Positions 401-34,879 of a DNA stretch of 55,359 nucleotides are shown here, one piece after another. The translations under genes and the position numbers were made by a program. Numbering within the stretch: the stretch's first letter is position 1; each line of letters starts with the position of its first letter. The notes beneath the pieces were generated by a model, which saw nothing but the letters and a program-made list of their open reading frames with translations, was not told the origin of the DNA and searched no databases. The DNA is from a virus. Taxonomy: Duplodnaviria; Caudoviricetes. The stretch is taken from IMG/VR virus record IMGVR_UViG_3300048580_000268, positions 1 through 55,359 of that record; one strand, 5' to 3'.

Positions 401-3061
401 CTAACCACCTTGTAGTGATCTATCTAGTGTTGATGTTGAGACTCCAAGGCGAGCTGCTACCTCAGCTCTAGTATAGTCACCAGTACTAAGTAAGGCTTGA
501 GCTTGCTTAGTCTTGGCATCTGTCATTAATAGTTTAGCTCTTGGTGTGGCTAGCTCTCTGACTTTATCCATGTCTGAGTTGTCTAGTATTGACCTGAGTT
601 TAGTATCACTTACTGCTCCAGCTTGAATAGCTTCCCATTCTTTAGGCTCAATAACTATCTTCTCTTTCTTAGCGCCTACTCTATTGCGGGCCTCTGTTAA
701 TGCCTGGCCGTTTAACTTCTTTTCAGAAGCTCGATCCATATGTGGATTTGCTTGCTTCTTCTGCTCCATGATTTCATTAGCTAGAATCTGAGCCCGTCTT
801 TCACGAGGGGCGTTTTCTTTTGCTATGCGGAGTTTAACATCTAGAGAAGAAACTTCTTTCTCGTAAACTTTCTTTGCAGAGGGGGATGAGATAGCGCCTG
901 GGGTATTAATCATTTCAAGTCTTGCTTTGTTAGCCATAGCTTTTAGTCTGTTTGAATGATTAGCATACAGTCTTTCAACTGGTGTACCAGAAGAAAGATC
1001 ATGAGCATCTTTTGCTAATTCAAGTTCCTCAAACTTCCTTAAGCTTAACTCTCCCGTTTTACTATTTACCCTACCTGTTGGCTCCCAAACAAGCTCGCCA
1101 GTCTTTCGGTCTATTGGCCCACCGTTTCTTGCCCTACGTGGTATGACCTCAGGAACCCTTATGTCACGGCCAGCCCTAGAGATAATAGTAGAAGCTCCAC
1201 CGCTACCATCAGCTTTACGTTGATACTTTTCTTGCAGGGCCCTAATGCGGTTATCTTTCTCTGACTGCTTATAATTCAATCTGTGTTTTTCAGCGTCAAT
1301 AACAACCATTGAATGGCGAACTGCTGCAGCTAACTCAGTCTCAGAAGCCCCATGCAAAGTCATGTCTGTGATTAGGTTAGAGATAACACCCATCTGCTTT
1401 TGTGTGTCGCCCATAATTTTCATACCTGGGTATTCTCGGTATGTTTCTCTGGGGTTAAAGTTCTTTAAACCTTCTAAAGCAGGCGTTGATCTTATTCTAC
1501 CTTTATCATTTGGTATAACTAATACCGTGTCTCCATCAAAGTCCGCTCCAGACAAACGTTCCGCAACTTGTGCGTTTATTGCCACTGCATCTTTAGCGCC
1601 TTTAAGAAGTTTATTAGCTTCCCTGTTCTTGTTGTTAACAACGAGAAGTGGGATTTCGAAAGTTCCTCCATGCGGGTAGCGTATTAGAGATACTTTTGTG
1701 CCGTTATCATAATTAGGGGCGTAGACTTCTGTCGGTGATAATGAATTAATAGGTAGTATCGCATACCATGCTTGACCAGGAAGACTTGCTGCCTTTAGGT
1801 GAACGGACGCGGCATCAGTTCCATCTGCAAACTCTTGAAGAAGTTTAGATTTAACTGTTGGATTAGTTAACGCCATGATTTCATCAAGTTCAGCTTGCCG
1901 CTGTTTATAGGTGGTGTCTAAACGCTCTCTAATAAGTTTTGGTTCTTGTTTAGAAAGAACTTGCGAGGCTATGGATTTTGACCATGCTCCCCAATTACCC
2001 TCTTCATTGACAATGTTTACTGCTGACTTGTTAACTTCTAACCCAGTTTTTGGATCTTTCTCTGTTATTTGTCTACGAATTACAGCGCCAAAAGGATTAT
2101 CTGGATCATCGGTTAACTTCTTTAAAGCATCAAGTTTGTTGTTAGTTCTTTCTTTATTAGTATTAAATTGTATATCGACTCCTGCAGGCAGATCATCTTT
2201 ATACATAGCCATACCTTTTAGGTAGTGCTCTGGACCTACTTTAATACGGACTTGAGCGTAACGAGATCCTCCAAGATCTAAATCTTTAACTCCTGGACGG
2301 ATATACATTACTCCATCTAAAGCCGACCCTCCATCAGGCCCATAGACGACGTCAATTCTTTTTGGATTGATTGATATCGGTGGAAGAATCCCTAATGTAG
2401 ACTTTCCAGTATCGTCTAAACGCTCGTTAAGCATCCGTATTTTATTTCGGTTTTTAACGGCGTCGCCCCAACTTGTACCAGGTTTCGCAAGCACTCTAAG
2501 TTTTGTGTCATAAACTGTTCCAAGCTGAGGAACCGGAACGTTTGAGTGAACTTCGTAACCTTCTGCTTTCAACATAGACAAAGCGACTTTTAAACGCTCT
2601 TCACTCACATTCAAGTACATTTCTGTACCTATACCGACATCCAACCAATCAACTTTATTAACCTGATCTCTTAAAATATTAGTTACTGTTTCAATAACAT
2701 CATTTTTCATTTTAGCGGCTGGAGCAAGAAGAGTTCTAAATGTTGATTCTGGAATCCCCATTTGCTCGGATGCTGCTTTATCTGACATCTGCTTGGTGTA
2801 TTTAAGATATTCAGCAGTTTTTATTCGTTCTTGTTGTCTCTCATTTTTAGCAATAGTCTTAAACGCCCGAAGATCTGCTACAGACATTTCAAAACTTTTT
2901 GCAATTTCAGCTTCTGTAAATTTATCTTCTTTTCTCAGCTTTTCAACCATATCAAGAAAGGTTCGACTATTCTTGACATTTCCACCAGATCCCCAAGGGT
3001 ATCGACCAGATTTTCTGGGAGTACCATAATGTTCAAGATAAACGTCTTCATCAATGTACAT
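401..3061 (-). CDS. Single-subunit two-barrel (DPBB) RNA polymerase-like protein, RDR/YonO type, with HTH domains
   Basis: RLSGADFDGD catalytic motif, RYPH, DG...QVR...KG, G.I.N...HS..ID..K; C-terminal HTH RAEVAARLGVSTSTL. Confidence 0.8.
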   Translation of the reverse strand: MYIDEDVYLEHYGTPRKSGRYPWGSGGNVKNSRTFLDMVEKLRKEDKFTEAEIAKSFEMSVADLRAFKTIAKNERQQERIKTAEYLKYTKQMSDKAASEQMGIPESTFRTLLAPAAKMKNDVIETVTNILRDQVNKVDWLDVGIGTEMYLNVSEERLKVALSMLKAEGYEVHSNVPVPQLGTVYDTKLRVLAKPGTSWGDAVKNRNKIRMLNERLDDTGKSTLGILPPISINPKRIDVVYGPDGGSALDGVMYIRPGVKDLDLGGSRYAQVRIKVGPEHYLKGMAMYKDDLPAGVDIQFNTNKERTNNKLDALKKLTDDPDNPFGAVIRRQITEKDPKTGLEVNKSAVNIVNEEGNWGAWSKSIASQVLSKQEPKLIRERLDTTYKQRQAELDEIMALTNPTVKSKLLQEFADGTDAASVHLKAASLPGQAWYAILPINSLSPTEVYAPNYDNGTKVSLIRYPHGGTFEIPLLVVNNKNREANKLLKGAKDAVAINAQVAERLSGADFDGDTVLVIPNDKGRIRSTPALEGLKNFNPRETYREYPGMKIMGDTQKQMGVISNLITDMTLHGASETELAAAVRHSMVVIDAEKHRLNYKQSEKDNRIRALQEKYQRKADGSGGASTIISRAGRDIRVPEVIPRRARNGGPIDRKTGELVWEPTGRVNSKTGELSLRKFEELELAKDAHDLSSGTPVERLYANHSNRLKAMANKARLEMINTPGAISSPSAKKVYEKEVSSLDVKLRIAKENAPRERRAQILANEIMEQKKQANPHMDRASEKKLNGQALTEARNRVGAKKEKIVIEPKEWEAIQAGAVSDTKLRSILDNSDMDKVRELATPRAKLLMTDAKTKQAQALLSTGDYTRAEVAARLGVSTSTLDRSLQGG

Positions 3062-6364: not shown

Positions 6365-6388
6365 CTCTCATTATAAGCGCTGTAAAAA
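6365..6388 (-). promoter_or_regulatory. Conserved promoter motif
   Basis: TTTTTACAGCGCTTATAATGAGAG. Confidence 0.85.
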
Positions 6389-6601
6389 CTACGGTTTCAC
6401 GATGACCCGAGTCATTACTGCGTCATAGTTACCATCGGCAAGAATGATCCCCACCATTACAGTCGGTACAATCTCGAATGGAATATCAACGCCGTGGTAG
6501 ATGAAGCTATGATGTGTTTCTGAGTCTACCTCAGGCTTCACGCCTCCGTTGATAGCCGCGATGAGCGGAATGGTGTTCTCTTCAATCGGGATGATAATCA
6601 T
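6389..6601 (-). CDS. Hypothetical protein
   Basis: 70-aa ORF coupled to the upstream gene. Confidence 0.65.
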   Translation of the reverse strand: MIIIPIEENTIPLIAAINGGVKPEVDSETHHSFIYHGVDIPFEIVPTVMVGIILADGNYDAVMTRVIVKP

Positions 6602-6807
6602 CAGTTCTTCTTTGCTTCGAAGTAGTTCTTCAGTATGTCTGAAACGGTAGTGTCAGTAATCTTGCTGGCGGTTTCGGCCTTCTTCTCCATGAACTTAGCG
6701 TGGGAGAGAATTCCTGCCGCGTAAGCAGAGCCAAAACCAAAGACGGTCAAAGCTCCTAAGACATAACCTGCTGCGAACTTCATTACTTTCCTCCTGTTGA
6801 TTGACAA
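6601..6807 (-). CDS. Small membrane protein
   Basis: 68-aa ORF with one hydrophobic segment. Confidence 0.65.
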   Translation of the reverse strand: MSINRRKVMKFAAGYVLGALTVFGFGSAYAAGILSHAKFMEKKAETASKITDTTVSDILKNYFEAKKN

Positions 6808-6810
6808 ATT

Positions 6811-6848
6811 AAAAAAGGAAAAGCACCGTGATTGGTGCTCGTCCTTTT
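6811..6848 (-). terminator. Intrinsic terminator (type A)
   Basis: AGCACC-loop-GGTGCT hairpin flanked by AAGG/CCTT and T-tract. Confidence 0.75.
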
Positions 6849-6870
6849 GAGGTTGTTACCTCGGGTCTTC

Positions 6871-7020
6871 TCAGATGTCAGCGGTCAGCAGCCGCCGCAC
6901 ACCCTTCCGCACCGACGCATCGTGGTACCCGGCGATCCCCGCGTTGACAGCGTTGATGGCACCGAGTCCGGCGAAGACGGTGACGATGGTGTACAGGACG
7001 ACCTTGATGGCCTTCTTCAT
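6871..7020 (-). CDS. Cassette gene 8, 49 aa membrane protein MKKAIKVVLYTIVTVFAGLG...
   Basis: Hand-translated (below ORF-track cutoff); AAAGGAG RBS, GC-rich third codon positions. Confidence 0.8.
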   Translation of the reverse strand: MKKAIKVVLYTIVTVFAGLGAINAVNAGIAGYHDASVRKGVRRLLTADI

Positions 7021-7044
7021 GGAAGTCTCCTTTGTAGGTGGTTA

Positions 7045-7077
7045 TCTCATTATAAGCGTTGTAATTTTTGTTGACAA
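7045..7077 (-). promoter_or_regulatory. Conserved promoter motif, TTGTCA-17-TATAAT
   Basis: TTGTCAACAAAAATTACAACGCTTATAATGAGA. Confidence 0.85.
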
Positions 7078-7110
7078 GAAGAAAGCCCTTGTCAGGGGCT
7101 CGCTTCTTTT
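7078..7110 (-). terminator. Intrinsic terminator (type B)
   Basis: AGCCCCTGACAAGGGCT hairpin plus pyrimidine tract. Confidence 0.7.
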
Positions 7111-7123
7111 GATTACCTTTCAG

Positions 7124-7300
7124 TCAGTTCTTCATCCGACGCTTGACCTCCTTCTCCCAGGTCCGGGAGTTGCGCTCGTTGGTCGCCACCTCCACCGTCT
7201 TCAGGATCGTTCCTGCGATCCCGGCGACGACGGTGATGACGATGTACGGCTGCTCCTCCCAGACCTGCTTGGTCTTGGTCTTGAGCTGGTGGATGTTCAT
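7124..7300 (-). CDS. Cassette gene 7, 58 aa membrane protein MNIHQLK...
   Basis: GGAGG RBS; start revised; one TM-like segment. Confidence 0.8.
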   Translation of the reverse strand: MNIHQLKTKTKQVWEEQPYIVITVVAGIAGTILKTVEVATNERNSRTWEKEVKRRMKN

Positions 7301-7317
7301 GATTCCTCCTGTTTGTT

Positions 7318-7351
7318 CTCTCATTATAAGAGCTGTAAATAATGCGGACAA
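7318..7351 (-). promoter_or_regulatory. Conserved promoter motif, TTGTCC-17-TATAAT
   Basis: TTGTCCGCATTATTTACAGCTCTTATAATGAGAG. Confidence 0.85.
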
Positions 7352-7397
7352 AAAAGAGAAATCCTTGTAGGTTTTACGCTACAAGGACTATCTCTTT
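7351..7397 (-). terminator. Intrinsic terminator (type C)
   Basis: TCCTTGTAG-loop-CTACAAGGA hairpin plus T-tract. Confidence 0.75.
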
Positions 7398-7407
7398 CGA
7401 GACTGCT

Positions 7408-7542
7408 CTAGCTGAACAGTCGTCCGATCACGTTGGCGGCCCCCCGGATCACCCTGCGCATGAACAGCCCGGTCATCGTGATGATGATCAGGCAGCCCAA
7501 CAGGATGGTGCCGAGGAACGCGTTGACGGTGGATGCGAACAT
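7408..7542 (-). CDS. Cassette gene 6, 44 aa membrane protein MFASTVNAFLGTILLG...
   Basis: Hand-translated; AAAGGAG RBS; hydrophobic. Confidence 0.8.
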   Translation of the reverse strand: MFASTVNAFLGTILLGCLIIITMTGLFMRRVIRGAANVIGRLFS

Positions 7543-7563
7543 GGTGCTCCTTTAGTAGGTTGT

Positions 7564-7592
7564 CTCTCATTATAGGAGCTGTAATTTTTGTG
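7564..7592 (-). promoter_or_regulatory. Conserved promoter motif (no -35 match)
   Basis: CACAAAAATTACAGCTCCTATAATGAGAG. Confidence 0.8.
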
Positions 7593-7784
7593 CTATCCTT
7601 CGTCTAAATCTTCTGTAAGAAAATTAAACATGTGGTCCACGCGTTCTTGATACAATCCATCTATCAATCCTTGAAGAACACCTTCTAGCTCGTCGAAATT
7701 TCTCTGTAGGATTCGTGCTCTGAATTCAACATAGGCGATTGCTGCTACACCAATACCTATAGGAAAGACAAATTTATTAAACAT
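7593..7784 (-). CDS. Small membrane protein
   Basis: 63-aa ORF, AAAGGAG RBS, N-terminal TM segment; no own promoter motif. Confidence 0.7.
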   Translation of the reverse strand: MFNKFVFPIGIGVAAIAYVEFRARILQRNFDELEGVLQGLIDGLYQERVDHMFNFLTEDLDEG

Positions 7785-7798
7785 AGTAACTCCTTTTC

Positions 7799-7836
7799 AA
7801 AAAGGAAAAGCACCGCAATAGTGATGCTAATCCTTT
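7799..7836 (-). terminator. Intrinsic terminator (type A)
   Basis: Related in sequence to 6811-6848. Confidence 0.65.
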
Positions 7837-7852
7837 AACCTGTTAAGGTCAG

Positions 7853-8020
7853 TTAGTTGAGGCTGTTGGCGTAGAACGTCCTCAGACCTTCGAGTTCTTC
7901 GTGCGCTTCGTCAAGCTCGTCCAACACCTGGATGTGCTCCTGGTAGAGGTGGTACAAGTTCCACGAAAGCACCGCGAGCGCGATGATCTGGATAAGTGCA
8001 ATCAACAGTACGAACAACAT
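7853..8020 (-). CDS. Cassette gene 5, 55 aa TM plus coiled-coil protein MLFVLLIALIQ...
   Basis: Hand-translated; AAGGAG RBS. Confidence 0.8.
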   Translation of the reverse strand: MLFVLLIALIQIIALAVLSWNLYHLYQEHIQVLDELDEAHEELEGLRTFYANSLN

Positions 8021-8041
8021 TTCTGTCTCCTTCTGTGGTTA

Positions 8042-8074
8042 TCTCATTATACGCGCTGTAAATAATGTGGACAA
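8042..8074 (-). promoter_or_regulatory. Conserved promoter motif, TTGTCC-17-TATAAT
   Basis: TTGTCCACATTATTTACAGCGCGTATAATGAGA. Confidence 0.85.
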
Positions 8075-8111
8075 AAATAAGAAGCCTTGTCAAGACTAGA
8101 CTTCTTATTTT
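8073..8111 (-). terminator. Intrinsic terminator
   Basis: AAAATAAGAAG...CTTCTTATTTT inverted repeat. Confidence 0.7.
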
Positions 8112-8141
8112 GAGGTTACTACCTCGTGGGGTGTTATGGGT

Positions 8142-8285
8142 TCACTTCTTCGCCTTGGTGGCGAGGAGAGCGGCCAGACCAGTGAGCAGCATGGTGACCG
8201 CCCGCGTACGGGCCTTCTCCTTGCGGCGCTGTTCTGATCGCTGTCGGTTCGCTTCGACCAAGTCGAAGAAACGTGTTCCAGCCAT
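8142..8285 (-). CDS. Cassette gene 4, 47 aa basic protein with C-terminal hydrophobic segment MAGTRFFDL...
   Basis: Hand-translated; AAGGAG RBS. Confidence 0.8.
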   Translation of the reverse strand: MAGTRFFDLVEANRQRSEQRRKEKARTRAVTMLLTGLAALLATKAKK

Positions 8286-8307
8286 GTCAACTCCTTGTTG
8301 TAGGTTT

Positions 8308-8341
8308 CTCTCATTATAAGCGTTGTAAATAATGCGGACAA
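8308..8341 (-). promoter_or_regulatory. Conserved promoter motif, TTGTCC-17-TATAAT
   Basis: TTGTCCGCATTATTTACAACGCTTATAATGAGAG. Confidence 0.85.
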
Positions 8342-8371
8342 GAAGAAAGCCCTTGTCGGGGGCTCCCTTCT
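8341..8371 (-). terminator. Intrinsic terminator (type B)
   Basis: Near-identical to 7078-7110. Confidence 0.7.
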
Positions 8372-8380
8372 ATTGATAAC

Positions 8381-8548
8381 TCAGGTGTTGATGTGTCGGT
8401 CGTTGCCGGCCAAACCAGTCTGCTCATCCTTCAAGGCCTCGATCGTGCGCGTCATCACCAACATCTTCTGATGCTGGCGATAGATCACATAAGCGAGGAC
8501 CATGACGATGGTTCCCATGGTGTAGCTGTAAAGCGTCCAAAACAACAT
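8381..8548 (-). CDS. Cassette gene 3, 55 aa TM plus coiled-coil protein MLFWTLYS...
   Basis: AAAGGAG RBS; start revised; leader GGAGACAGAAATGTTGTT shared with 7853-8020. Confidence 0.8.
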   Translation of the reverse strand: MLFWTLYSYTMGTIVMVLAYVIYRQHQKMLVMTRTIEALKDEQTGLAGNDRHINT

Positions 8549-8565
8549 TTCTGTCTCCTTTGTTT

Positions 8566-8599
8566 CTCTCATTATAGGAGCTGTAAAAAATGTGGACAA
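8566..8599 (-). promoter_or_regulatory. Conserved promoter motif, TTGTCC-17-TATAAT
   Basis: TTGTCCACATTTTTTACAGCTCCTATAATGAGAG. Confidence 0.85.
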
Positions 8600-8632
8600 A
8601 AAGGTTAGGGGTGTTGCCACCCCTTTCCTTTT
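8598..8632 (-). terminator. Intrinsic terminator
   Basis: AGGGGTGGCAACACCCCT hairpin (GCAA tetraloop) plus T-tract. Confidence 0.75.
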
Positions 8633-8838
8633 CAGTTGTTGAGCTCTTCCCAGTGCTCGGGGCTGTAGAACTCCATCGGGTCGATGTCACGCTCGCCCAA
8701 GAACTCGTAGAACTGCCTGATGTTGCGCTGCTGGATGGCGATCGCCGTCATAGCGATGGCCCCCCAGACGTACGCAGACTTCTTCTCTTCGTAGTGGTTC
8801 TTGAGCTTGGTAACACCAGCCTTGATCTTGTCCTTCAT
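8632..8838 (-). CDS. Cassette gene 2, 68 aa protein MKDKIKAG...
   Basis: GGAGG RBS; start revised; short hydrophobic segment. Confidence 0.8.
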   Translation of the reverse strand: MKDKIKAGVTKLKNHYEEKKSAYVWGAIAMTAIAIQQRNIRQFYEFLGERDIDPMEFYSPEHWEELNN

Positions 8839-8862
8839 GGTTCCTCCGTTGGTAGGTGGTTG

Positions 8863-8895
8863 TCTCATTATAAGCGTTGTAAATAATGTGGACAA
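8863..8895 (-). promoter_or_regulatory. Conserved promoter motif, TTGTCC-17-TATAAT
   Basis: TTGTCCACATTATTTACAACGCTTATAATGAGA. Confidence 0.85.
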
Positions 8896-8937
8896 AAAAG
8901 AGAAGCCCCGTAGTTTTTACGCTACGAGACTTCTCTC
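8894..8937 (-). terminator. Intrinsic terminator (type C)
   Basis: Related to 7351-7397 (similar GCGTAAAA-containing loop). Confidence 0.75.
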
Positions 8938-8943
8938 CGTGAG

Positions 8944-9183
8944 TTACTTCGCCTTCTTGGCGGCGTCGTCGAGGATCTTCTCGTTGATCTTCTCGATCTT
9001 CTTCTCCCGGCGGTCCGCGACGCGGTTGCCGATGGCGGTCTTCGCCTTGTCCCAGTTGCGCGCGGCGACGGTACCCAGCAGGGCACCAGCGCCGAACACG
9101 ACTGCGGTGGCGAGGAACGCACCGGTCTCCGTGTCTTCGGTCTCGTCGTTGAAGTCGATCTCGTCGTTCACGATCTCGTCCAT
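8944..9183 (-). CDS. Cassette gene 1, 79 aa acidic-TM-basic protein
   Basis: GGAGG RBS; strongly GC-rich third codon positions. Confidence 0.8.
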   Translation of the reverse strand: MDEIVNDEIDFNDETEDTETGAFLATAVVFGAGALLGTVAARNWDKAKTAIGNRVADRREKKIEKINEKILDDAAKKAK

Positions 9184-9211
9184 TTCAATTCCTCCGTTTG
9201 GTAGGGTGTTT

Positions 9212-9241
9212 CTCTCATTATAAGAGCTGTAATTTTTGCGG
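9212..9241 (-). promoter_or_regulatory. Conserved promoter motif (no -35 match)
   Basis: CCGCAAAAATTACAGCTCTTATAATGAGAG. Confidence 0.85.
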
Positions 9242-9245
9242 TTTA

Positions 9246-9422
9246 TTACTCTTCTAAGTATGGATAAACAATGAAACTTACAAGCCTTTGGTTTGGGCCA
9301 GCTTTGAACATGGGATTCATAACCAAAGCATAGGGATGCTTTTCGTATAAATTGAGCAGCTCATCTTCAAGATATACAAAACCGACAGTTTCACTATCAA
9401 TTAGTATTGGTACGCGTTTCAT
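9246..9422 (-). CDS. Hypothetical protein (MKRVPIL...), start overlaps tRNA CCA end
   Basis: ORF trimmed to the ATG at the tRNA-Leu 3' end. Confidence 0.5.
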   Translation of the reverse strand: MKRVPILIDSETVGFVYLEDELLNLYEKHPYALVMNPMFKAGPNQRLVSFIVYPYLEE

Positions 9423-9511
9423 GGTGCCCCCAGTGGGATTCGAACCCACACGACTTTTTAAAGTCCTTCGGGTTTAAGCCGAATGCGTCTGCCTGATTTC
9501 GCCATGGGGGC
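9422..9511 (-). tRNA. tRNA-Leu(TAA)
   Basis: GCCCCCA/TGGGGGC acceptor stem, anticodon loop CTTAAAC, long variable arm, GTTCGAATC, encoded CCA. Confidence 0.92.
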
Positions 9512-9881: not shown

Positions 9882-10118
9882 TTAATACGGATCGGCGTAC
9901 TTACCATGCCAAGGATCATTACACGGCTCTAGGTGTTTACCACCCAGATCATTATACATAATCAAGCGTCGAGTCTTTTGCCGGTCACTCTGGCAGGTTG
10001 GGCACGGATAAACTTCTTTATCCTTAGACTCCGCCCAAGACAACCAAACTAAAAGGCCTAAAACAAAAAGAAAGAGGCCCCAAAAATACCAAGTACCGAA
10101 CCACTCTAAAACTGTCAT
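9882..10118 (-). CDS. Membrane protein with CxxC...CxxxxH putative zinc site (start revised to MTVLEWF)
   Basis: The longer ORF overlaps a tRNA; TM helix, CPTC, CNDPWH. Confidence 0.65.
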   Translation of the reverse strand: MTVLEWFGTWYFWGLFLFVLGLLVWLSWAESKDKEVYPCPTCQSDRQKTRRLIMYNDLGGKHLEPCNDPWHGKYADPY

Positions 10119-10138
10119 TATCTGTCTTTTTCCTTTTG

Positions 10139-10211
10139 TGGGCTGGGAGGGAATTGAACCCCCGACCGAGTTATTATGAGTAACCTGCTCTAACCACTGA
10201 GCTACCAGCCC
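10139..10211 (-). tRNA. tRNA with CAT anticodon, probably Ile2 (lysidine type), alternatively elongator Met
   Basis: GGGCTGG/CCAGCCC acceptor stem, TAGCTCAGTGGTTAGAGCA D-arm, CTCATAA loop, GTTCAATTC. Confidence 0.9.
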
Positions 10212-10218
10212 TAGAGCT

Positions 10219-10437
10219 TTATTCAACTACAATCGTGATTCCAAGAATTTTGTTATTGGCGAGATCAACAGCAGCTTCAGGAGGAAGTTGCAGCAAATAT
10301 GGGTCTTCTGATATCTCCTCAAATTGCTGAGATGTGATTCGAATCGTTTCGTTTTGAGCGATAAAGGTTTCTCCGTCCAAAAGACTAGTTGTTTTCAGAT
10401 CATGAACTGCGTCTATAAGATCTTTGAAGTTGGTCAT
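10219..10437 (-). CDS. Hypothetical protein
   Basis: 72-aa ORF with AAGGA RBS. Confidence 0.6.
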   Translation of the reverse strand: MTNFKDLIDAVHDLKTTSLLDGETFIAQNETIRITSQQFEEISEDPYLLQLPPEAAVDLANNKILGITIVVE

Positions 10438-10627
10438 TTTTGTCCTTAGTTGTGTTAAATCGCCGAGGCTTTACGATGTTCGACCTCTTGACAGAAAATA
10501 CTGCCGCGTAGTCGTCTCGAAACCAAACATGAGTCTCGTCCTTGTCTATGACTTCAACAAGACCTTCGTCATGATCTCGGCCAAGATGCTCGTGGTAATA
10601 GGTCAACTCTACAAATTCTGGAACCAT
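10400..10627 (-). CDS. Hypothetical protein
   Basis: 75-aa ORF with GGAGG RBS. Confidence 0.6.
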   Translation of the reverse strand: MVPEFVELTYYHEHLGRDHDEGLVEVIDKDETHVWFRDDYAAVFSVKRSNIVKPRRFNTTKDKNDQLQRSYRRSS

Positions 10628-10659
10628 GTTTCCTCCTAATTAAAAATGGCTAATGAAAA

Positions 10660-10736
10660 TGCCGGACACTAAGAACTATGCACGCAGTCGTCAATGAGTG
10701 GATAGTTTGTGGTTGGATAACCCTTAGTGCCCAGCA
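10660..10736 (-). ncRNA. Putative structured RNA immediately 3' of tRNA-Lys
   Basis: 13-bp stem GCUGGGCACUAAG/CUUAGUGUCCGGC enclosing two hairpins. Confidence 0.5.
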
Positions 10737-10739
10737 CAG

Positions 10740-10813
10740 TGCACCCCCTGGGACTTGAACCCAGAACCAACGGATTAAAAGTCCGACGCTCTAACCAATT
10801 GAGCTAGAGGTGC
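10740..10813 (-). tRNA. tRNA-Lys(TTT)
   Basis: GCACCTC/GGGGTGC acceptor stem, CTTTTAA loop, GTTCAAGTC. Confidence 0.92.
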
Positions 10814-11550
10814 GTGTACCCAGCCGGATCGCCAAAAACGGCCTTACTGTTTTGACCCCCAGGATCTTATCAGTGCACTGTCTCTCACGTAAACCCTTAA
10901 TTTTCTAAGGGCGGCTCGATGACAGTCTCCTCCGGGTCAGAGGAGATGAGAAAAGGAGCAGTTTTGACCAGGATGCTCGGCCTGGGAGAGACGCCCTACA
11001 GAGGCGAAATTAAGGCAACCACGGACATATAGTGTCATCATCGCAACGAGAAACCAAGATTGCGAGGTACATGCACAGCGCTAAAGGAGAGGAAGGGACT
11101 GTGCTACGTGGTCTTTACCGACACAAGGCCTTAGCGAAATTGCTGTAGAGGCTCCTGACTAAGCCAGGAATTAAGCGTTATTGGCGCGCCTAATCTCAAA
11201 TGAGCACCTCTACAGCGTCCTTAGCCTGTTTGTGTTGTACCCAACCTATCTACCCATTTGGGCGACTCGGTCCACAAACAAAACGCGCACCTGGTACGGG
11301 TGGCGTCACACTAAGCGGTTTTTTGTTTACCTGAACCACTGATGATCAGTCAATGGCGTTCTGTGTCACCTTCACAGTGTACGGGCCTCTCGGCCCCGCG
11401 CTGAGCCTAAACTCTATTTAACGTCGCTCAGCCGACGATCTATTAATATAAACGAACTATCGCCTCAGGGCGGTCCGACCAGGATATGGGCGAGCCTGCG
11501 GACTGTACAACTCTCTGGCGAGGTGAGGTTGTAGCGCCCTGGACGAATTG
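10814..11550 (-). ncRNA. Putative large multi-domain structured ncRNA or ncRNA cluster
   Basis: No ORF of 60 aa or more; many nested stems, junctions and two H-type pseudoknots. Confidence 0.65.
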
Positions 11551-11559
11551 ATAAAAATA

Positions 11560-11672
11560 AAAAATGAGAAGCTGGGGCTAACTAGCCAACGAAACTAGTT
11601 ATTAGCGATCTTTCTTCATCGCGCCAGGTAGGTGGGGTTTGCTCCCACTCATTACGTGTCTTACCTTCTTCT
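11560..11672 (-). ncRNA. Putative ~105-nt small RNA (promoter to T-tract, no ORF)
   Basis: Directly follows the promoter motif; closing stem plus three internal stems; ends in TTTTTTATTTTT. Confidence 0.6.
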
Positions 11673-11697
11673 CATTATAAGCCCTGTAATTTTTGCG
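11670..11697 (-). promoter_or_regulatory. Conserved promoter motif driving the ncRNA region
   Basis: CCGCAAAAATTACAGGGCTTATAATGAGA. Confidence 0.85.
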
Positions 11698-11699
11698 GA

Positions 11700-11963
11700 T
11701 CACTCTGGCGGGACAAGTTCAAACTGCTCGGTAAAAATCTTTGCCGAGTAGCATCGAATGTTATCTCCCATGCGGGTCATGTAAAACCCAGGGTAAACCC
11801 GGTAGACGTTCGGGATCAACCGGCGGTCGACCTGAATGTAAGAGGTTCCATCTTCCTTCTTTCGGACGGTCCCAACAAACTCTGCGACTTCGTTAATGTT
11901 TTCTTCTGTGATTTCCACAGCTTCAACGACAAAGGGCTTTCGAATATAAGTATTGAAATACAT
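11700..11963 (-). CDS. Hypothetical protein
   Basis: 87 aa; RKPFVVEAV and VYPGFY motifs typical of small phage proteins. Confidence 0.75.
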   Translation of the reverse strand: MYFNTYIRKPFVVEAVEITEENINEVAEFVGTVRKKEDGTSYIQVDRRLIPNVYRVYPGFYMTRMGDNIRCYSAKIFTEQFELVPPE

Positions 11964-20715: not shown

Positions 20716-20820
20716 AAAAAAATAAAAAAGAAGCATTTATGGAGGAGCTCGCCCTGGTTGGGAGAGCCCCTCCAACTGTTCCTTTTGGTAAGTTGTAATT
20801 TGGAAAAGCTTACGCTCTCC
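20716..20820 (-). ncRNA. Putative ~100-nt small RNA (promoter to T-tract)
   Basis: Follows the promoter motif; GUAAG/CUUAC stem, GGAGGGGCUC/GAGCUCCUCC hairpin, TTTTTTATTTTTT end. Confidence 0.55.
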
Positions 20821-20845
20821 ATTATAGGACCTGTAATTCTTGCGG
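20817..20845 (-). promoter_or_regulatory. Conserved promoter motif
   Basis: CCGCAAGAATTACAGGTCCTATAATGGAG. Confidence 0.8.
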
Positions 20846-20906
20846 ATGGCCAATTTGAAACCGTTTGCCCAAAAATCCCCCCCGGGGAAAAAATAAAAAT
20901 CGTTGT

Positions 20907-21294: not shown

Positions 21295-21322
21295 TCTCAT
21301 TATAAGCGCTGTATTTACTGCG
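21295..21322 (-). promoter_or_regulatory. Conserved promoter motif
   Basis: CCGCAGTAAATACAGCGCTTATAATGAGA. Confidence 0.8.
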
Positions 21323-30611: not shown

Positions 30612-32543
30612 TTAAGTGTCAGAAATAGTATAAGTTTCGCCGTCAAGATATGTGGCATTAACATTTGCCAGAGTAAACTGGTCAATTCCTGGCGTATTTA
30701 AGTAAATATAATTAGGATCTTCTGTTGTCGCCGTCCAAGTACCATCTCCGTTGTCAATAATCTGGAACGAGAACCAGGTTTTGATGTAAGCGATTAGGTC
30801 TCTCATCGCCGGAAGCGATGGTTTTATAGTTGGGGTTCCATATAAGATTCGTTCAATCTGAACCAACAGAAGCGGGTTTATGTTTATTGTTCCTATGATC
30901 AACTTTGCCGCGGGCCGGTAGCCATCAATAAATGCTGGTAAAGCGGTCAAATCCCACTGGAACTCTGTGGCAGACGCCGTATCGCTGAGAGTTTCATACC
31001 CGACACTTGATGGCGTAGCAACAACATTATAAACAATATGAATTTTATAACCGACCGGTTCTCCAGTAAGATCATTTAAAATCCGTGTCCTGTAAGACAA
31101 ACCAAACGGCTTAGGCGGCTGCTCAGTAATAGAAAACCCGGGGGTCATTTGAGGAAGGCCCTGAAGGTCGTTGAGTTCATCAGGATACGTTATTGCTGTG
31201 AGAGATGCGTTGTAGTTACCCATAGTGACTACCTGAGATATTTTAGCTCCATCATAGCGAACCGGTTCTACCGAAACATTCGGGTTCTCTTTGACAGAGA
31301 CAAGACCGTTCCATGGAACAACTCGCCCATCCGGTAAATATAAAACACCACGATCTAAACCGTTCTGGTATTCTCGATCACCAACACCATCCCAAACAAG
31401 AGCAGTGGGCTCTGGCGCAGGCGGCGGAGGAGGCGGAGGAGGTGGTTCAGAAGAGCAACTAACGTCAATGGTGACAGATAGTTGATCAACCGCCCATGAT
31501 CTTTGGCCGACGTTTTCTATTTGACCAGTTGGGAGCCCGATTAGTATTTGCCAATCTGTTATATCAAGATCGTCACCACTAAGAGTCCGCGTGAAGGAAA
31601 GAGTTTTTGGACCGGCTTCGTCGCCGTCCATGAGCTGTAAGACATCAAACGTGTTGAACGGGTCAGATTTAGAAAGGCTTGTAAATACGGCGTAATCCTG
31701 AGTAGTGAACTGGTTTCCAAGATTTACCCCACTGCGACTGATCCTAACACTGGCCGTAAGCTCAATTTCCGCAGCATTAACAGGAAATGACAGAGGCACT
31801 GCCGCGTAACGTCCTCCAGTTGAATCGTTAAGCGACCCGTTTTCTAGCCAACCTGTAGTCCATGCTGCTGAGATGTTTCCAAGAGCCCCAGATCCAGGTG
31901 CTGAATTCGTGCCAAGAGCAAACGTTGTGTTATCTGGCTCTATAGTCCCAACGCCTGCTGGGTATGGGCCTTCAACGCATGGCGGAATGACTTCACCCTC
32001 GGTTAACACCCAAGCTATGTAGTTAGTGTTGTCGAGGTATAGATTACCAACAAAAGAGTCTGAGCCAGTAGGAGCCAATGGGTCATTCAAAATTATTGCA
32101 AAAAATAACAGGTCACAATTAACTTCACTTACAAATTCTACAGTAAATGAATACGAGCCTAACGGTGGAACTGGTAAATCTGGGAAAAAGAATGAAGTTG
32201 AACTTGAGTTTGGAAACGAAGTAAATGTCGGGGCAGCGCCAATTGGAGTAAAAGTGACATGATCAATATTAGAAGGTGACGTTCCTGTTGTAAAAATGCC
32301 GTCGTTATAACAAGTAGTCTCTTCTCCAATAGTAAAGTTGTCGTTAATAGATCCAAGTCCACAATACCAAAAAGAATCTAGACCATCTATAAAAGTAATT
32401 GTCCCAGAAAGAACTGGGTTGTTTCCTGTCCTATCTATTGGGTCAAGTTCAACTTCAACAAATCCGGTTTCTATTTCTTCGCCAAGGAAATCAAAATATG
32501 CTCCTTGCGCTTCCTCAGTTCCATTTAAAGTTAAGCTCGGCAT
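30612..32543 (-). CDS. Tail protein: N-terminal beta-rich domains, Pro linker, C-terminal major-tail-like domain
   Basis: C-terminal WDGVGDREYQNGLDRGVLY...WNGLVSV...YPDE resembles 35464-36354. Confidence 0.75.
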   Translation of the reverse strand: MPSLTLNGTEEAQGAYFDFLGEEIETGFVEVELDPIDRTGNNPVLSGTITFIDGLDSFWYCGLGSINDNFTIGEETTCYNDGIFTTGTSPSNIDHVTFTPIGAAPTFTSFPNSSSTSFFFPDLPVPPLGSYSFTVEFVSEVNCDLLFFAIILNDPLAPTGSDSFVGNLYLDNTNYIAWVLTEGEVIPPCVEGPYPAGVGTIEPDNTTFALGTNSAPGSGALGNISAAWTTGWLENGSLNDSTGGRYAAVPLSFPVNAAEIELTASVRISRSGVNLGNQFTTQDYAVFTSLSKSDPFNTFDVLQLMDGDEAGPKTLSFTRTLSGDDLDITDWQILIGLPTGQIENVGQRSWAVDQLSVTIDVSCSSEPPPPPPPPPAPEPTALVWDGVGDREYQNGLDRGVLYLPDGRVVPWNGLVSVKENPNVSVEPVRYDGAKISQVVTMGNYNASLTAITYPDELNDLQGLPQMTPGFSITEQPPKPFGLSYRTRILNDLTGEPVGYKIHIVYNVVATPSSVGYETLSDTASATEFQWDLTALPAFIDGYRPAAKLIIGTININPLLLVQIERILYGTPTIKPSLPAMRDLIAYIKTWFSFQIIDNGDGTWTATTEDPNYIYLNTPGIDQFTLANVNATYLDGETYTISDT

Positions 32544-32554
32544 GATGGCTCCTT

Positions 32555-34879
32555 TTATGTATCAGAAATAATATAGGTTTCGTCATCAAGAAATGTGGCA
32601 TTTACATCAACAATCATAAACTGATCTTCTTGAGGAACGTCGACAAATATGTATCCATCATTATCTGATGTTGCTGTCCAGGTTCCGTCACCATTATCAA
32701 TTATTTGAATTGTGTACCAGGTCCTGATGTATTCTAGAAGCTCTTGCATCGTCGGTAATGCTGGCTGAACAGTTGATGTTCCATAAAGAAGCTTTTCAAG
32801 TTCTATAAGTAAATCTGGGTTTATCTTTGTCGTGTCAACGACAAATTTTGCCGTTGGTCTAAAACCATCAATGAAGCCCGACAACGCAACTAAATCCCAT
32901 TGGAACTCCATTGCTGACGGATCATCGCTCAGAGTTTCGTATCCAATATCAGTTGGAACAGCTATAACGTTATAAACAATATGAATTTTGTAACCAATCG
33001 GTTCTTGTGAAATATCGTCCAAAATTCTAGTCCTGTAGGACAACCCAAAAGTTTTAAGAGGCTGATCAGTTAGGTAAACGTCTTCAACAAGCTGAGCAAC
33101 CCCTTGAAGATCGTCTAACTCGTCTGGATATGTTATGGCGGAAAGCTTTGCCGAGTAATCGCCCATGTTAACAATCTCAGAAATTTTTACACCGTCATAA
33201 AACACGCCCTGGGTTGAGGAGCCAGAATCTTCTTCAACCGACAATAGACCGTTCCAAACTACTGCGCGCCCATCTGGTAAATATAAAACGCCACGATCAA
33301 CTCCGTTTTCGTAAACTCGTTCTCCTATGACATCCCAAAAAAGTCTTTGATCTTTTTGTGGCGTTGGTGCGCACGTATCAATCGAAAAAGAAAAATCTGA
33401 GACGTTGATTCCTACCGCCGGAGTATTGCTGTTTGTAAGCTTAAGAACTCTAAAATAAACATAGAGCGTTTCCCCTAAGTAATCCGAAAGATCCGCCGTT
33501 GCTGTATTAAATCCCTCAATAGAGTTAAAATTACTTCCAATACTAAGTATTGCGTGCACTGACGGATTGTTTACCATATCATTTAATGTAGCAGTAGATG
33601 TATCTTTAAGTATATAAACGCTCAAATAAGCTTGATTTCCTTGGCGAAGAAAAAGAGACATATTAGCTCTTGCCGGGCCATCTGACGGAACACTAAAAGG
33701 GGCAATCGCGTGATGAATTTGATTTCCAGTACCAAAAGAACTTTTAGTCCATCCGTCTGGGTACGGCTCGGTGAGTTGATCTAAATCGGTTGCTTGAGAA
33801 TTACCATTTATCCCGGCAAGAGTAACAGGAGGCGCAGGCCCCCAATTTAAAGCAATTTCATTAGGGGTGTATCCTTCATTAGAACAAACGCCGCTAACAA
33901 CCGATGAAACTTCAAATTCTAGACCCCAAAACCGCCATTGTCCATTAAGAAGTATATATCCTGTAAATCCATTACTGAGGGGGTTTGTACGGCTTCGTTC
34001 CAGCTCAAAAAATTGCGGCTCAGTAGTATTTTGGTTGAATTGAAACTGTGATTCAAGACCACCGCCACCATCACCGTTTATTCCAATTTGTGCCTGAGCA
34101 ATGCCGGAGAGAGGACCTGATATTTTTTGTGCCCACCCTGAAAATTTTCCAATAGAAATAAAAGTATAGGCCGGAGTTCTACACGGCGCCATCTGTAGAG
34201 CTGCATAATTTGAGTTTGGTAAAGGATTAACGTCGCTATCTAAGAGAATACCTGGAGGTTCTTTAGATACTTCTTCATACTGAATAGCCGGATTATAAAA
34301 GGTCGTGCCAAGAATAGCAAGAGACGTTTTTTTTACAAGAGTATCTGAAGAACTAGGAAACCCAAAACAACTTGATTGATTAGATAAGGTGTAAGCAACC
34401 TCCTCTCTTACTGGTTGGCCAGTAAATATTTGATTTGGCTGATAAAAACCAAAAGCAAGGTATGTACCTAAAGAATCAAGGCTATGTCCATACCCTAGTT
34501 TAAAATTGTATGTGGACCCAGCAGGAATGTTTTGAGTGGAGTAGTAAGGTCCGTACCCGCCACCAAAACCTAGAGGACTTGCAGTTATTGCTGGTCCGCC
34601 ATTTGTTGGTTGCATAGGAACAAATGGAGTGCCCCCAATAACTTCATCATTTTGTGATACCGGTGGGATTAAATTAGCTGGACCTCCAGCGAGAAGCACT
34701 GTAAATAAACTGGTAAAAGCAGTTCTAGTTTCTGGAAAAGTTATACTTCCAGATACTTCTACTCTGCTATCAAGTATCTTTTTACCGGTAAACGTAACTA
34801 AAGAAATGGGAGACGGATTCCCATCGAGATCATAAGAAGCTGTTTTTAATTCACAAGTTGCTATCAACGGATCTGGCAT
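32555..34879 (-). CDS. Tail protein: N-terminal beta-rich domains plus C-terminal major-tail-like domain
   Basis: C-terminal WDVIGERVYENGVDRGVLY...FGLSYRT...GYKIHIVY. Confidence 0.75.
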   Translation of the reverse strand: MPDPLIATCELKTASYDLDGNPSPISLVTFTGKKILDSRVEVSGSITFPETRTAFTSLFTVLLAGGPANLIPPVSQNDEVIGGTPFVPMQPTNGGPAITASPLGFGGGYGPYYSTQNIPAGSTYNFKLGYGHSLDSLGTYLAFGFYQPNQIFTGQPVREEVAYTLSNQSSCFGFPSSSDTLVKKTSLAILGTTFYNPAIQYEEVSKEPPGILLDSDVNPLPNSNYAALQMAPCRTPAYTFISIGKFSGWAQKISGPLSGIAQAQIGINGDGGGGLESQFQFNQNTTEPQFFELERSRTNPLSNGFTGYILLNGQWRFWGLEFEVSSVVSGVCSNEGYTPNEIALNWGPAPPVTLAGINGNSQATDLDQLTEPYPDGWTKSSFGTGNQIHHAIAPFSVPSDGPARANMSLFLRQGNQAYLSVYILKDTSTATLNDMVNNPSVHAILSIGSNFNSIEGFNTATADLSDYLGETLYVYFRVLKLTNSNTPAVGINVSDFSFSIDTCAPTPQKDQRLFWDVIGERVYENGVDRGVLYLPDGRAVVWNGLLSVEEDSGSSTQGVFYDGVKISEIVNMGDYSAKLSAITYPDELDDLQGVAQLVEDVYLTDQPLKTFGLSYRTRILDDISQEPIGYKIHIVYNVIAVPTDIGYETLSDDPSAMEFQWDLVALSGFIDGFRPTAKFVVDTTKINPDLLIELEKLLYGTSTVQPALPTMQELLEYIRTWYTIQIIDNGDGTWTATSDNDGYIFVDVPQEDQFMIVDVNATFLDDETYIISDT

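Follow-up and report, generated by a model that had tools for sequence, protein, structure and literature searches.

A Pistol ribozyme among conserved RNA modules in a gene-free stretch upstream of a phage tRNA-Lys

Introduction

The pistol class of ribozymes was reportedly introduced by Weinberg et al. and Harris et al. in 2015. Here we describe a member of this class, together with the conserved RNA modules around it, in a stretch of 737 nt (positions 10814–11550, minus strand) that is almost free of open reading frames (ORFs) and directly precedes a tRNA-Lys gene. The stretch belongs to the 55,359-bp viral record IMGVR_UViG_3300048580_000268 of IMG/VR, the whole of which is referred to as the window. 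Two further groups of phage RNAs serve for comparison. GOLLD and ROOL are long, ORF-free, structured RNAs that are borne by phages and lie beside tRNA genes, and the early RNA of phage T7 carries RNase III processing hairpins between its genes.

Pistol RNAs have been reported near phage genes, with a prevalence in Firmicutes and in environmental DNA, according to one report (PMC4604425), and another states that it is still largely unknown what pistol and other bioinformatically discovered ribozymes do in their organisms (PMC6765202). The core in the window resembles the described members in its helices P1, P2 and P3, its 6-bp pseudoknot, its G-U dinucleotide and a score above the family's gathering threshold. 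It differs from them in three respects. Its setting is an actinophage-like siphovirus, in what appears to be a non-coding unit headed by a promoter and bearing a tRNA; a conserved tail motif (termed T), absent from the pistol cores of cultured phages, follows it in every case; and the P3 stems of sister phages carry domains of 60–125 nt that belong to several recurring types. Literature searches returned no description of actinophage pistols, of a conserved pistol tail or of P3 domains, although the supplementary lists of the discovery papers may include them.

Theta ribozymes offer a second comparison. In one account they are self-cleaving elements of tRNA-bearing phage transcripts, proposed as a stand-in for host RNases (PMC10879173). 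A small, predicted self-cleaving ribozyme and a tRNA in one putative phage transcript are common to both systems. The ribozyme class is different, however: theta ribozymes, which resemble that of hepatitis delta virus (HDV), cut at the tRNA 3' end, whereas here 568 nt separate the predicted cut from the 5' end of the tRNA downstream of it, and most relatives of the locus have no tRNA near the ribozyme. Rfam scans gave no HDV-like match, neither for the window at the gathering threshold nor for positions 10600–11800 at E-values up to 5.

The feature is real; part of it is known (the pistol ribozyme) and most of it is undescribed (modules A, T, D, E and F). The locus sets the ribozyme in a defined context, with fixed neighbours (T, B and C) and with partner domains (A and D) that occur beside it or within P3, and this context leads to testable hypotheses on the purpose of cleavage. 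The A-type junction (34 distinct instances), T (22 distinct copies), D, E and F are candidate motifs that Rfam 15 does not contain. Because pistol cores occur in cultured Gordonia and Curtobacterium phages, experiments on the role of the ribozyme are feasible.

Results and Discussion

The pistol ribozyme

The region from 10628 to 11699 is the largest gap between minus-strand ORFs of the window, with 1072 nt at a minimum ORF length of 35, 45 or 60 amino acids (aa). The second-largest gaps comprise 114 nt (35 and 45 aa minimum) and 316 nt (60 aa minimum), and the claim of the first-pass annotation that this is the largest non-coding stretch of the genome is borne out. The sole minus-strand ORF within the region encodes 34 aa (10937–11041). 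A coding role was rejected for it; the ORF spans modules D and E, which are split by a gene in the related locus L089 (L numbers denote related phage loci or contigs compared with the window).

A cmscan search matched positions 11377–11437 of the minus strand to the Pistol model RF02679 with 46.6 bits (gathering threshold 34.5, E = 4.5e-07). The match spans the full model (1–68) and covers 61 of the 737 nt. This segment is a member of the Pistol family and is predicted to be self-cleaving. P1 is formed by CGUCG/CGACG, and its loop GCUGAG pairs with CUCAGC on the 3' side of P2 over six of six positions, giving the pseudoknot. P2 (GAGU/ACAC) has three of four pairs, with one mismatch flagged by cmscan. 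P3 is a minimal hairpin of 5 bp (GGGCC-GAGA-GGCCC). The predicted cleavage dinucleotide, G11382/U11381, is located in the linker between P3 and P2.

Among the 31 distinct units in which a pistol core is followed by T, P1 forms all five pairs in every case. The pseudoknot likewise forms five or six of its six pairs in all 31, using ten different combinations of loop and partner. A GU at the fixed position of the predicted cut is found in 18 of the 31 units; the spacing of the rest departs from the rigid segmentation that was used. An alignment of 24 pistol cores has 98.1% of its cells paired, as compared with 92.0% in shuffles and 24–45% when the partners are slid by one to three columns. Compensatory change is seen at five of the eleven pairs. 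For the pseudoknot, four of the six pairs are compensatory and none of 500 shuffles was as good.

A pseudoknot-type hammerhead has the same connectivity as the pistol core, as one source describes it (PMC11300833). The CUGANGA and GAAA strings of that hammerhead are absent from the core.

The first-pass annotation had suggested that the region encodes an undescribed large RNA or a series of small ones and had named an Rfam scan as a check. That scan yields the Pistol and tRNA families only, which removes the novelty of 61 of the 737 nt and leaves that of the other ~90%, where no Rfam 15 match was found. Across the whole window, no family besides these two passes the gathering threshold. At E-values up to 5 over positions 10600–11800 only noise was found beyond Pistol and tRNA, namely rows for S4-Clostridia, CLRN1-AS1, KCNQ1OT1 and Plastid-ycf2 (antisense to tRNA). 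In the relatives L128 and L129, scanned at E-values up to 1, Pistol is the sole Rfam match.

For comparison, 80 related loci were fetched via the SSB-like protein encoded next to the RNA stretch. Pistol scores above threshold in 17 of the 18 related loci that were scanned with Rfam (35.3–50.4 bits), a set pre-selected for prior similarity. An unbiased search was made with R1, a model built from the 5' half of the pistol. Of the 80 IMG/VR loci, 26 have the ribozyme on the downstream side of the SSB-like gene, 24 of them among the 33 closest loci and two among the 47 more distant ones; several loci are incomplete, so absence is uncertain. One locus (L122) has two pistol cores about 2 kb apart, at 7203 and 9175.

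Cultured phages also carry the element. A blastn search with a 143-nt query comprising pistol and T found the pistol 5' half in nine records. Curtobacterium phage JoyLin (L131, 4000–4066, 50.1 bits) and Gordonia phage GTE7 (L132, 3001–3069, 48.1 bits) have pistol cores above the gathering threshold in unannotated intergenic gaps. The gap of JoyLin also contains a CUGAUGAG...GAAA string, for which Rfam gave no hammerhead at the gathering threshold. With a query of 1151 nt, blastn against cultured phages returned tRNA matches only.

The tail motif T

Directly 3' of the predicted cut lies motif T (11315–11381, minus strand), of which 22 distinct copies were collected. It consists of a hairpin CUGUG-AAGGnnA-CACAG that begins 4 nt past the predicted cut site, a second, covarying hairpin whose loop is often UGAUCA, and the stretch UAAACAAAAAACCG. 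In an alignment of 21 of the 22 copies (A2) the first hairpin is invariant and UAAACAAAAAACCG almost so, and all seven pairs of the second hairpin show compensatory changes. Taken over the 12 pairs of T, of which seven are compensatory, 93.6% of the cells are paired; shuffles reach 78.6%, and none of 500 was as good.

The T pattern was found in 27 IMG/VR stretches. In the genomes of prokaryote species it gave three matches, one true and two by chance. The true match is a 5.3-kb contig of a metagenome-assembled genome with a full unit of pistol (carrying A), T, B and C. The pistol cores of cultured phages have no T, as judged by the search with the 143-nt pistol+T query and by the JoyLin and GTE7 loci. 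A kissing interaction between a GAAGG in the T loop and a CCUUC in a loop of module D was considered and rejected; the D loop of L089 lacks CCUUC, so the pairing is not conserved.

Module A and the inserts in P3

Upstream of the ribozyme, module A (11466–11541, minus strand) forms a three-way junction with C-rich apical loops. The closing stem CAGGGCG/CGCCCUG encloses arm a (UACAAC/GUUGUA) and arm b (GUCCG/CGGAC). In the consensus the 5' part comprises CAGGGCG, an invariant junction C, arm a, which starts and ends with UA, and a junction C(A/U). The 3' part comprises arm b with GUCYG, an invariant GU, and CRGRC adjoining the CGCCCUG of the closing stem.

A pattern search of the related loci gave 32 distinct instances of A, and 34 after further loci had been added, against a chance expectation estimated at ~0.002. 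They comprise 21 types of closing stem, eight of arm a and four of arm b. In an alignment of 14 instances, 92.5% of the cells are paired (81.9% in shuffles, 31–46% with slid partners), 12 of 22 pairs are compensatory and none of 500 shuffles was as good. At one pair the commonest state is U-G, which is compatible with the minus strand only. The strict A pattern matched 14 IMG/VR contigs but gave no match among 185,579 prokaryote species represented by a single genome each. Module A has no Rfam match at E-values up to 5. It was also considered as a tRNA and rejected; ARAGORN makes no call on it in the window.

Three arrangements of A are observed: free-standing, as in the window, in tandem (L004), or inserted in P3 of the pistol core. 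One free copy and one P3 copy each are present in L003, L007 and L109. P3 inserts of 60–125 nt occur in 25 of the 31 pistol+T units (L003–L031, L105–L129) and fall into at least four types, an A-type, a D-type, a GUUGUGGGAGAU...GGGAGCCCACAG type and a GUAGUGG.../...CCACUAC type. L125 and L014 have a free copy of their own insert type upstream of the ribozyme. A few inserts carry T-loop-like GGUUCGAUUCC strings. A tRNA-like nature of the inserts was rejected: ARAGORN called none of 31 P3 inserts at default settings or with -ps, and -ps80 gave one marginal match.

The apical loops of the 34 A instances contain 50.8% C, compared with 31.1% overall, and in 25 of the 34 an apical loop has CCC or CCNCC. 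This recalls the small RNA (sRNA) 6C of high-GC Gram-positive bacteria (RF01066), which binds messenger RNA via C-rich loops according to one description (PMC6486639). The resemblance is functional only. There is no match to the 6C model at E-values up to 5, and A is a three-way junction with invariant junction nucleotides of its own.

Modules B to F

The remaining modules follow T in the order B to F on the minus strand. Module B (11217–11314) contains a terminator-like hairpin with a U-tract (11276–11298), a helix UGUUUGUG/CACAAACA (11227–11280) and the string AAGGAC. The helix is kept with altered sequence in L120, L129 and L089. Module C (11142–11216) is a long hairpin GCUGUAGAGG/CCUCUACAGC around three small hairpins, and its arms (11142–11151 and 11207–11216) are an exact 10-nt inverted repeat. 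The fold of C has z = -5.27, with none of 200 shuffles as good. At the position of C, L120 and L129 have stems of the GCUGGAAGGGG/CCCCUUCCGGC type, as seen by eye; the automatic alignment left the outer stem unpaired. More distant relatives have GGAC-preceded hairpins there, with a G-rich 5' side and a CU-rich 3' side. For B and C together, 7 of 23 pairs are compensatory.

Module D (11011–11133) is built up from the stems UAAGGC/GCCUUA and GACCACG/CGUGGUU, which enclose hairpins. One of these has the CU-rich loop UCCCUUCCUCUCCUUU, and similar loops are found in L089, L002 and L024. The strings UUGUGUCGGUAAAGA and GAUGACACUA are invariant. D occurs in L089/L128 and L002/L093, and within the pistol P3 in L024/L088; compensatory changes affect 15 of 31 pairs (four sequences). 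In viral contigs the D pattern gave 19 matches, which are true in three contigs only. The strings GAUGA and GUAAAGA in D are reminiscent of a hammerhead. This assignment was rejected, as no match was found at E-values up to 5 and the order of the strings, judged by eye, does not fit the covarying stems.

Module E (10950–11010) has two short hairpins followed by the invariant string CAAAACUGCUC. It is 91% identical to its counterpart in L089 and present in all five close relatives, and it is conserved chiefly in sequence (one of ten pairs compensatory). A metagenome scan for E found two loci only. Module F (10814–10949) adjoins the tRNA and comprises four helices or hairpins, namely the hairpin UCUCCUC/GAGGAGA, CUGUC/GACAG with an inner hairpin, ACUG/CAGU, and the hairpin GGCCG/CGGCU. 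Here 11 of 28 pairs are compensatory (five sequences). What follows F varies between relatives: tRNA-Lys in L002 and L024, a gene in L120 and L129.

The six helices named in the first-pass annotation were all recovered at their positions from the sequence, the folds and the inverted repeats. Each of them is maintained in related phages by compensatory changes, for the outer stem of C as judged by eye, and the covariation that it had asked for in relatives is present as compensatory changes in A, T, D, F, B+C and E. No copies of the modules were found elsewhere in the window genome, where only the promoter-like motif described below recurs.

Folding energies and modularity

For the 737 nt of the minus strand the folding energy is -261.8 kcal/mol (z = -3.65), a value that none of 20 shuffles attained; the plus strand, at -245.2 kcal/mol (z = -2.04), is 16.6 kcal/mol less favorable. 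G-U pairs, compatible with the minus strand only, are frequent in the helices of A, D and F. Taken separately, the modules have z-scores of -5.3 (C), -3.5 (pistol), -3.0 (F), -2.2 (A) and -2.1 (leader), with weaker values for D (-1.0), T (-0.5), E (-0.3) and B (-0.25). Thus the expectation that the region folds better than shuffled sequence holds for the whole and fails for T, B and E, which are near shuffle level. Because the thermodynamics of the modules are this uneven, the case for structure rests mainly on the comparison with relatives, and covariation is the stronger evidence.

The close relatives were found by DNA patterns (L089/L128, L120, L129, L002/L093 and L024/L088). They share the order promoter motif, leader, A, pistol, T, B, C, D, E, F and tRNA-Lys. 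Small genes with Shine-Dalgarno sequences lie between the modules: L089 has them after A, D and E, L120 and L129 after E and F, and L002 after E. These intervening genes are simply absent in the lineage of the window. L120 lacks D. Between the window and L089 the modules are 81–91% identical, the flanking genes 65–73%. On the strength of these sequence comparisons, the region is a chain of eight or nine independently folding and independently conserved RNA modules rather than one global fold; the genes between modules and the independent gain and loss of modules argue against a single RNA of that kind.

The promoter-like motif and the proposed transcription unit

The genome contains 11 copies of a 20-nt motif, TTACARNNCNTATAATGAGA, where 0.03 would be expected; ten are exact, one has a single mismatch, and every one of them lies on the minus strand. 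We infer from this repetition that it is a promoter. Behind ten of the copies, ~15–30 nt downstream, come a Shine-Dalgarno sequence and a small gene with an ATG start. Only at 11670–11689 (TTACAGGGCTTATAATGAGA, minus strand) does the motif precede non-coding sequence, ~850 nt of it, and then tRNA-Lys. This suggests a dedicated non-coding transcription unit headed by the motif. The placement of the region between a promoter and tRNA-Lys, as first annotated, is thereby upheld, the promoter by its repetition only.

The leader between the motif and the modules ("Up", 11542–11668, minus strand) has hairpins closed by GAGAAG/CUUCUC and then a U-rich tract. Its fold has z = -2.1 (11551–11668), and nhmmer found similar leaders in L088, L034, L122 and L016. 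At the other end, tRNA-Lys (anticodon UUU; 10739–10813, minus strand) was identified by ARAGORN and scores 70.4 bits with the Rfam tRNA model. It is followed by a long imperfect hairpin and a U-rich run (10660–10736, minus strand), corresponding to inverted repeat I1 with arms of 23 nt that are 74% complementary. This hairpin is a putative terminator and thus a possible end of the transcription unit.

Proposed mechanism

Based on the organization of the locus we propose the following processing scheme, which we consider the probable one: the region would encode a precursor RNA that is cut by the ribozyme and by RNase P and so releases structured small RNAs or cis-acting elements. Transcription would start at the motif at 11670–11689 and proceed through the non-coding stretch and tRNA-Lys. 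Once made, the transcript is predicted to cleave itself between G11382 and U11381. The 5' piece of ~280 nt would comprise the leader, A and the ribozyme body and end in a 2',3'-cyclic phosphate. The 3' piece of 568 nt would begin with a 5'-hydroxyl, be headed by T and carry B, C, D, E and F. RNase P would release tRNA-Lys from the end of the 3' piece. The pieces could persist as stable small RNAs, serve as cis-acting elements of processing or stability, or both, and the cut would uncouple the fates of the promoter-proximal structured RNA and the RNA downstream. The A domain would end up on the 5' product together with the ribozyme whether it is located freely upstream or in P3, and T would head the 3' product. 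By analogy to 6C, A might pair with purine-rich, Shine-Dalgarno-like sequences through its C-rich loops and D through its CU-rich loop; both kinds of loop are candidate seeds. The polycistron of small RNAs that the first-pass annotation had named as its second option agrees better with these data than its first, one large non-coding RNA. Among the 30 ORFs scanned near the locus there are no RNA-end repair genes.

Several observations weigh against this scheme. The promoter motif is lineage-specific and lies at most 700 nt upstream of only 11 of the 38 distinct pistol cores in the fetched loci. Pistol, T, B and C are all missing from L002, which nevertheless retains A, D, E and F; these four modules thus do not depend on the ribozyme. 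In most relatives pistol-T-B-C precedes a Shine-Dalgarno sequence and a gene, an arrangement that a cis-acting leader would fit equally well. For T, B and E, the folding energies do not stand out from those of shuffles, and the counts of compensatory pairs in B to F come from four or five related sequences each and are inflated by shared ancestry.

A bolder form of the proposal is tentative. In this form the A junction and D would be new classes of trans-acting RNA, with loops that bind Shine-Dalgarno-like sequences or mimic the 3' end of 16S rRNA, and the pistol ribozyme would release or carry them. Where the domain is embedded in P3, cleavage could depend on whether that domain is folded or bound, and such cores would be natural allosteric or cargo-bearing pistols. 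If the trans-acting reading of A and D is true, a biological role would for the first time be defined for the pistol class.

Alternative explanations

The most serious alternative, which we regard as rather unlikely, is a purely cis-acting leader that provides stability, processing, read-through or antitermination for the downstream tRNA or genes and yields no trans-acting sRNA. In one variant a hairpin-capped 5'-hydroxyl end would protect the 3' product from a 5' exonuclease; in another, T would be an antitermination site of the boxB/boxA kind. The architecture of T, an invariant hairpin 4 nt past the cut followed by an invariant single-stranded A-rich box, is in line with a cis-acting leader. 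The rrn leader, as set out in one report, has boxB-boxA-boxC as structured antitermination elements at the head of a long transcript, just past the promoter, where they protect untranslated RNA (PMC10250234). What our modules have in common with these elements, and with the hairpins of T7 early RNA, is conserved structure in a position between cistrons or at the start of a transcript, and this is an analogy only; the likeness of T to boxA is weak. Genomic positions point both ways. In relatives T-B-C is followed ~150–230 nt on by a Shine-Dalgarno sequence and a gene of varying kind (a helicase in L028 and L125), and E precedes a gene in L089, L120, L129 and L002. In the window, however, there is no gene until past the tRNA, and A and D, which occur free, in tandem or in P3, are variably placed with respect to genes, which is unusual for a leader.

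A single large RNA of the GOLLD/ROOL kind, with a global architecture of which the modules are domains, is improbable. The region shares with these RNAs a length of ~740 nt, the absence of ORFs, the phage origin and the position beside a tRNA, and its minimum free energy fold (z = -3.65 for the whole region) includes long-range helices. Rfam covariance models for GOLLD, ROOL and other large RNAs gave no match, neither across the window at the gathering threshold nor over positions 10600–11800 at E-values up to 5; the first-pass annotation had likewise not matched the region to GOLLD or ROOL. That annotation's first idea of one large non-coding RNA is contradicted by the protein genes that lie between the modules in five close relatives and by modules that come and go independently; what the window presents is a set of separable modules, with a predicted self-cleaving ribozyme in the middle of the region. 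The long-range pairing between leader and trailer (11452–11467 with 10695–10710) was rejected: 64.7% of shuffles were as good for the window and 95.3% for L024. L002 has a different leader-trailer pairing, which is borderline (5.0% of shuffles as good).

Still less probable is an element acting at the DNA level, for instance an origin of replication or an array of protein-binding sites, that works through DNA hairpins and an A-tract. The stretch lies directly downstream of the genes for a primase/polymerase and the SSB-like protein, and an invariant A-rich box, TAAACAAAAAACCG, is present. Against this stand the bona fide ribozyme, the many G-U pairs in the helices, which on the other strand would be A-C mismatches, and the stronger fold of the minus strand. 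There are no iterons, and direct repeats are short and at chance level. Decayed remnants of small genes with chance hairpins are hardly credible: the small genes between the modules of relatives do imply gene loss in the lineage of the window, but the modules are better conserved than the neighboring genes (81–91% and 65–73%, respectively), their stems show compensatory change, and the 34-aa ORF runs across D and E, between which L089 has a gene.

Genomic context

The record has an estimated completeness of 92% and carries its genes on the minus strand. As judged from its gene content (tape-measure, major tail, portal, terminase and head protease), the phage is siphovirus-like. Its DNA primase/polymerase comprises 1244 aa and is ~59% identical to counterparts in Gordonia, Rhodococcus and Streptomyces phages. 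The SSB-like protein belongs to family PF24083, and the RNA stretch directly follows these two replication genes.

Two adjacent ORFs on the minus strand (30612–32543, 643 aa, and 32555–34879, 774 aa) match the major tail family PHROG 2645. Both matches are limited to the last ~260 residues, and the two are paralogues with long unmatched N-terminal parts.

The ten further copies of the promoter motif are located at 6366–9232 on the minus strand, at 21295–21314 and at about 20820–20847. Most of them have TTTTGTCCACATTAT ahead of them. Several of the small genes behind them look membrane-like, and the motif-headed single-gene units form a cassette array between the tRNAs and the helicase gene. 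An 886-aa ORF (401–3061, minus strand) matches PHROG 4291 from end to end (E = 0), a family labelled 'RNA-dependent RNA polymerase'. No Pfam polymerase domain was found in it, nor a sequence match among solved structures. It may be a non-canonical phage RNA polymerase that reads the repeated promoter motif.

Downstream of tRNA-Lys, tRNA-Met (10138–10211) and tRNA-Leu (9422–9511) lie among small genes. A mechanically called ORF of 114 aa (9882–10226, minus strand) overlaps tRNA-Met and is probably not a gene. In L129, at ~2480–2880, where neither Rfam nor inspection by eye recovered an intact tRNA, tRNA-Lys is apparently split in its anticodon loop by an insertion with an HNH-like ORF. This insertion may be an intron with a homing endonuclease.

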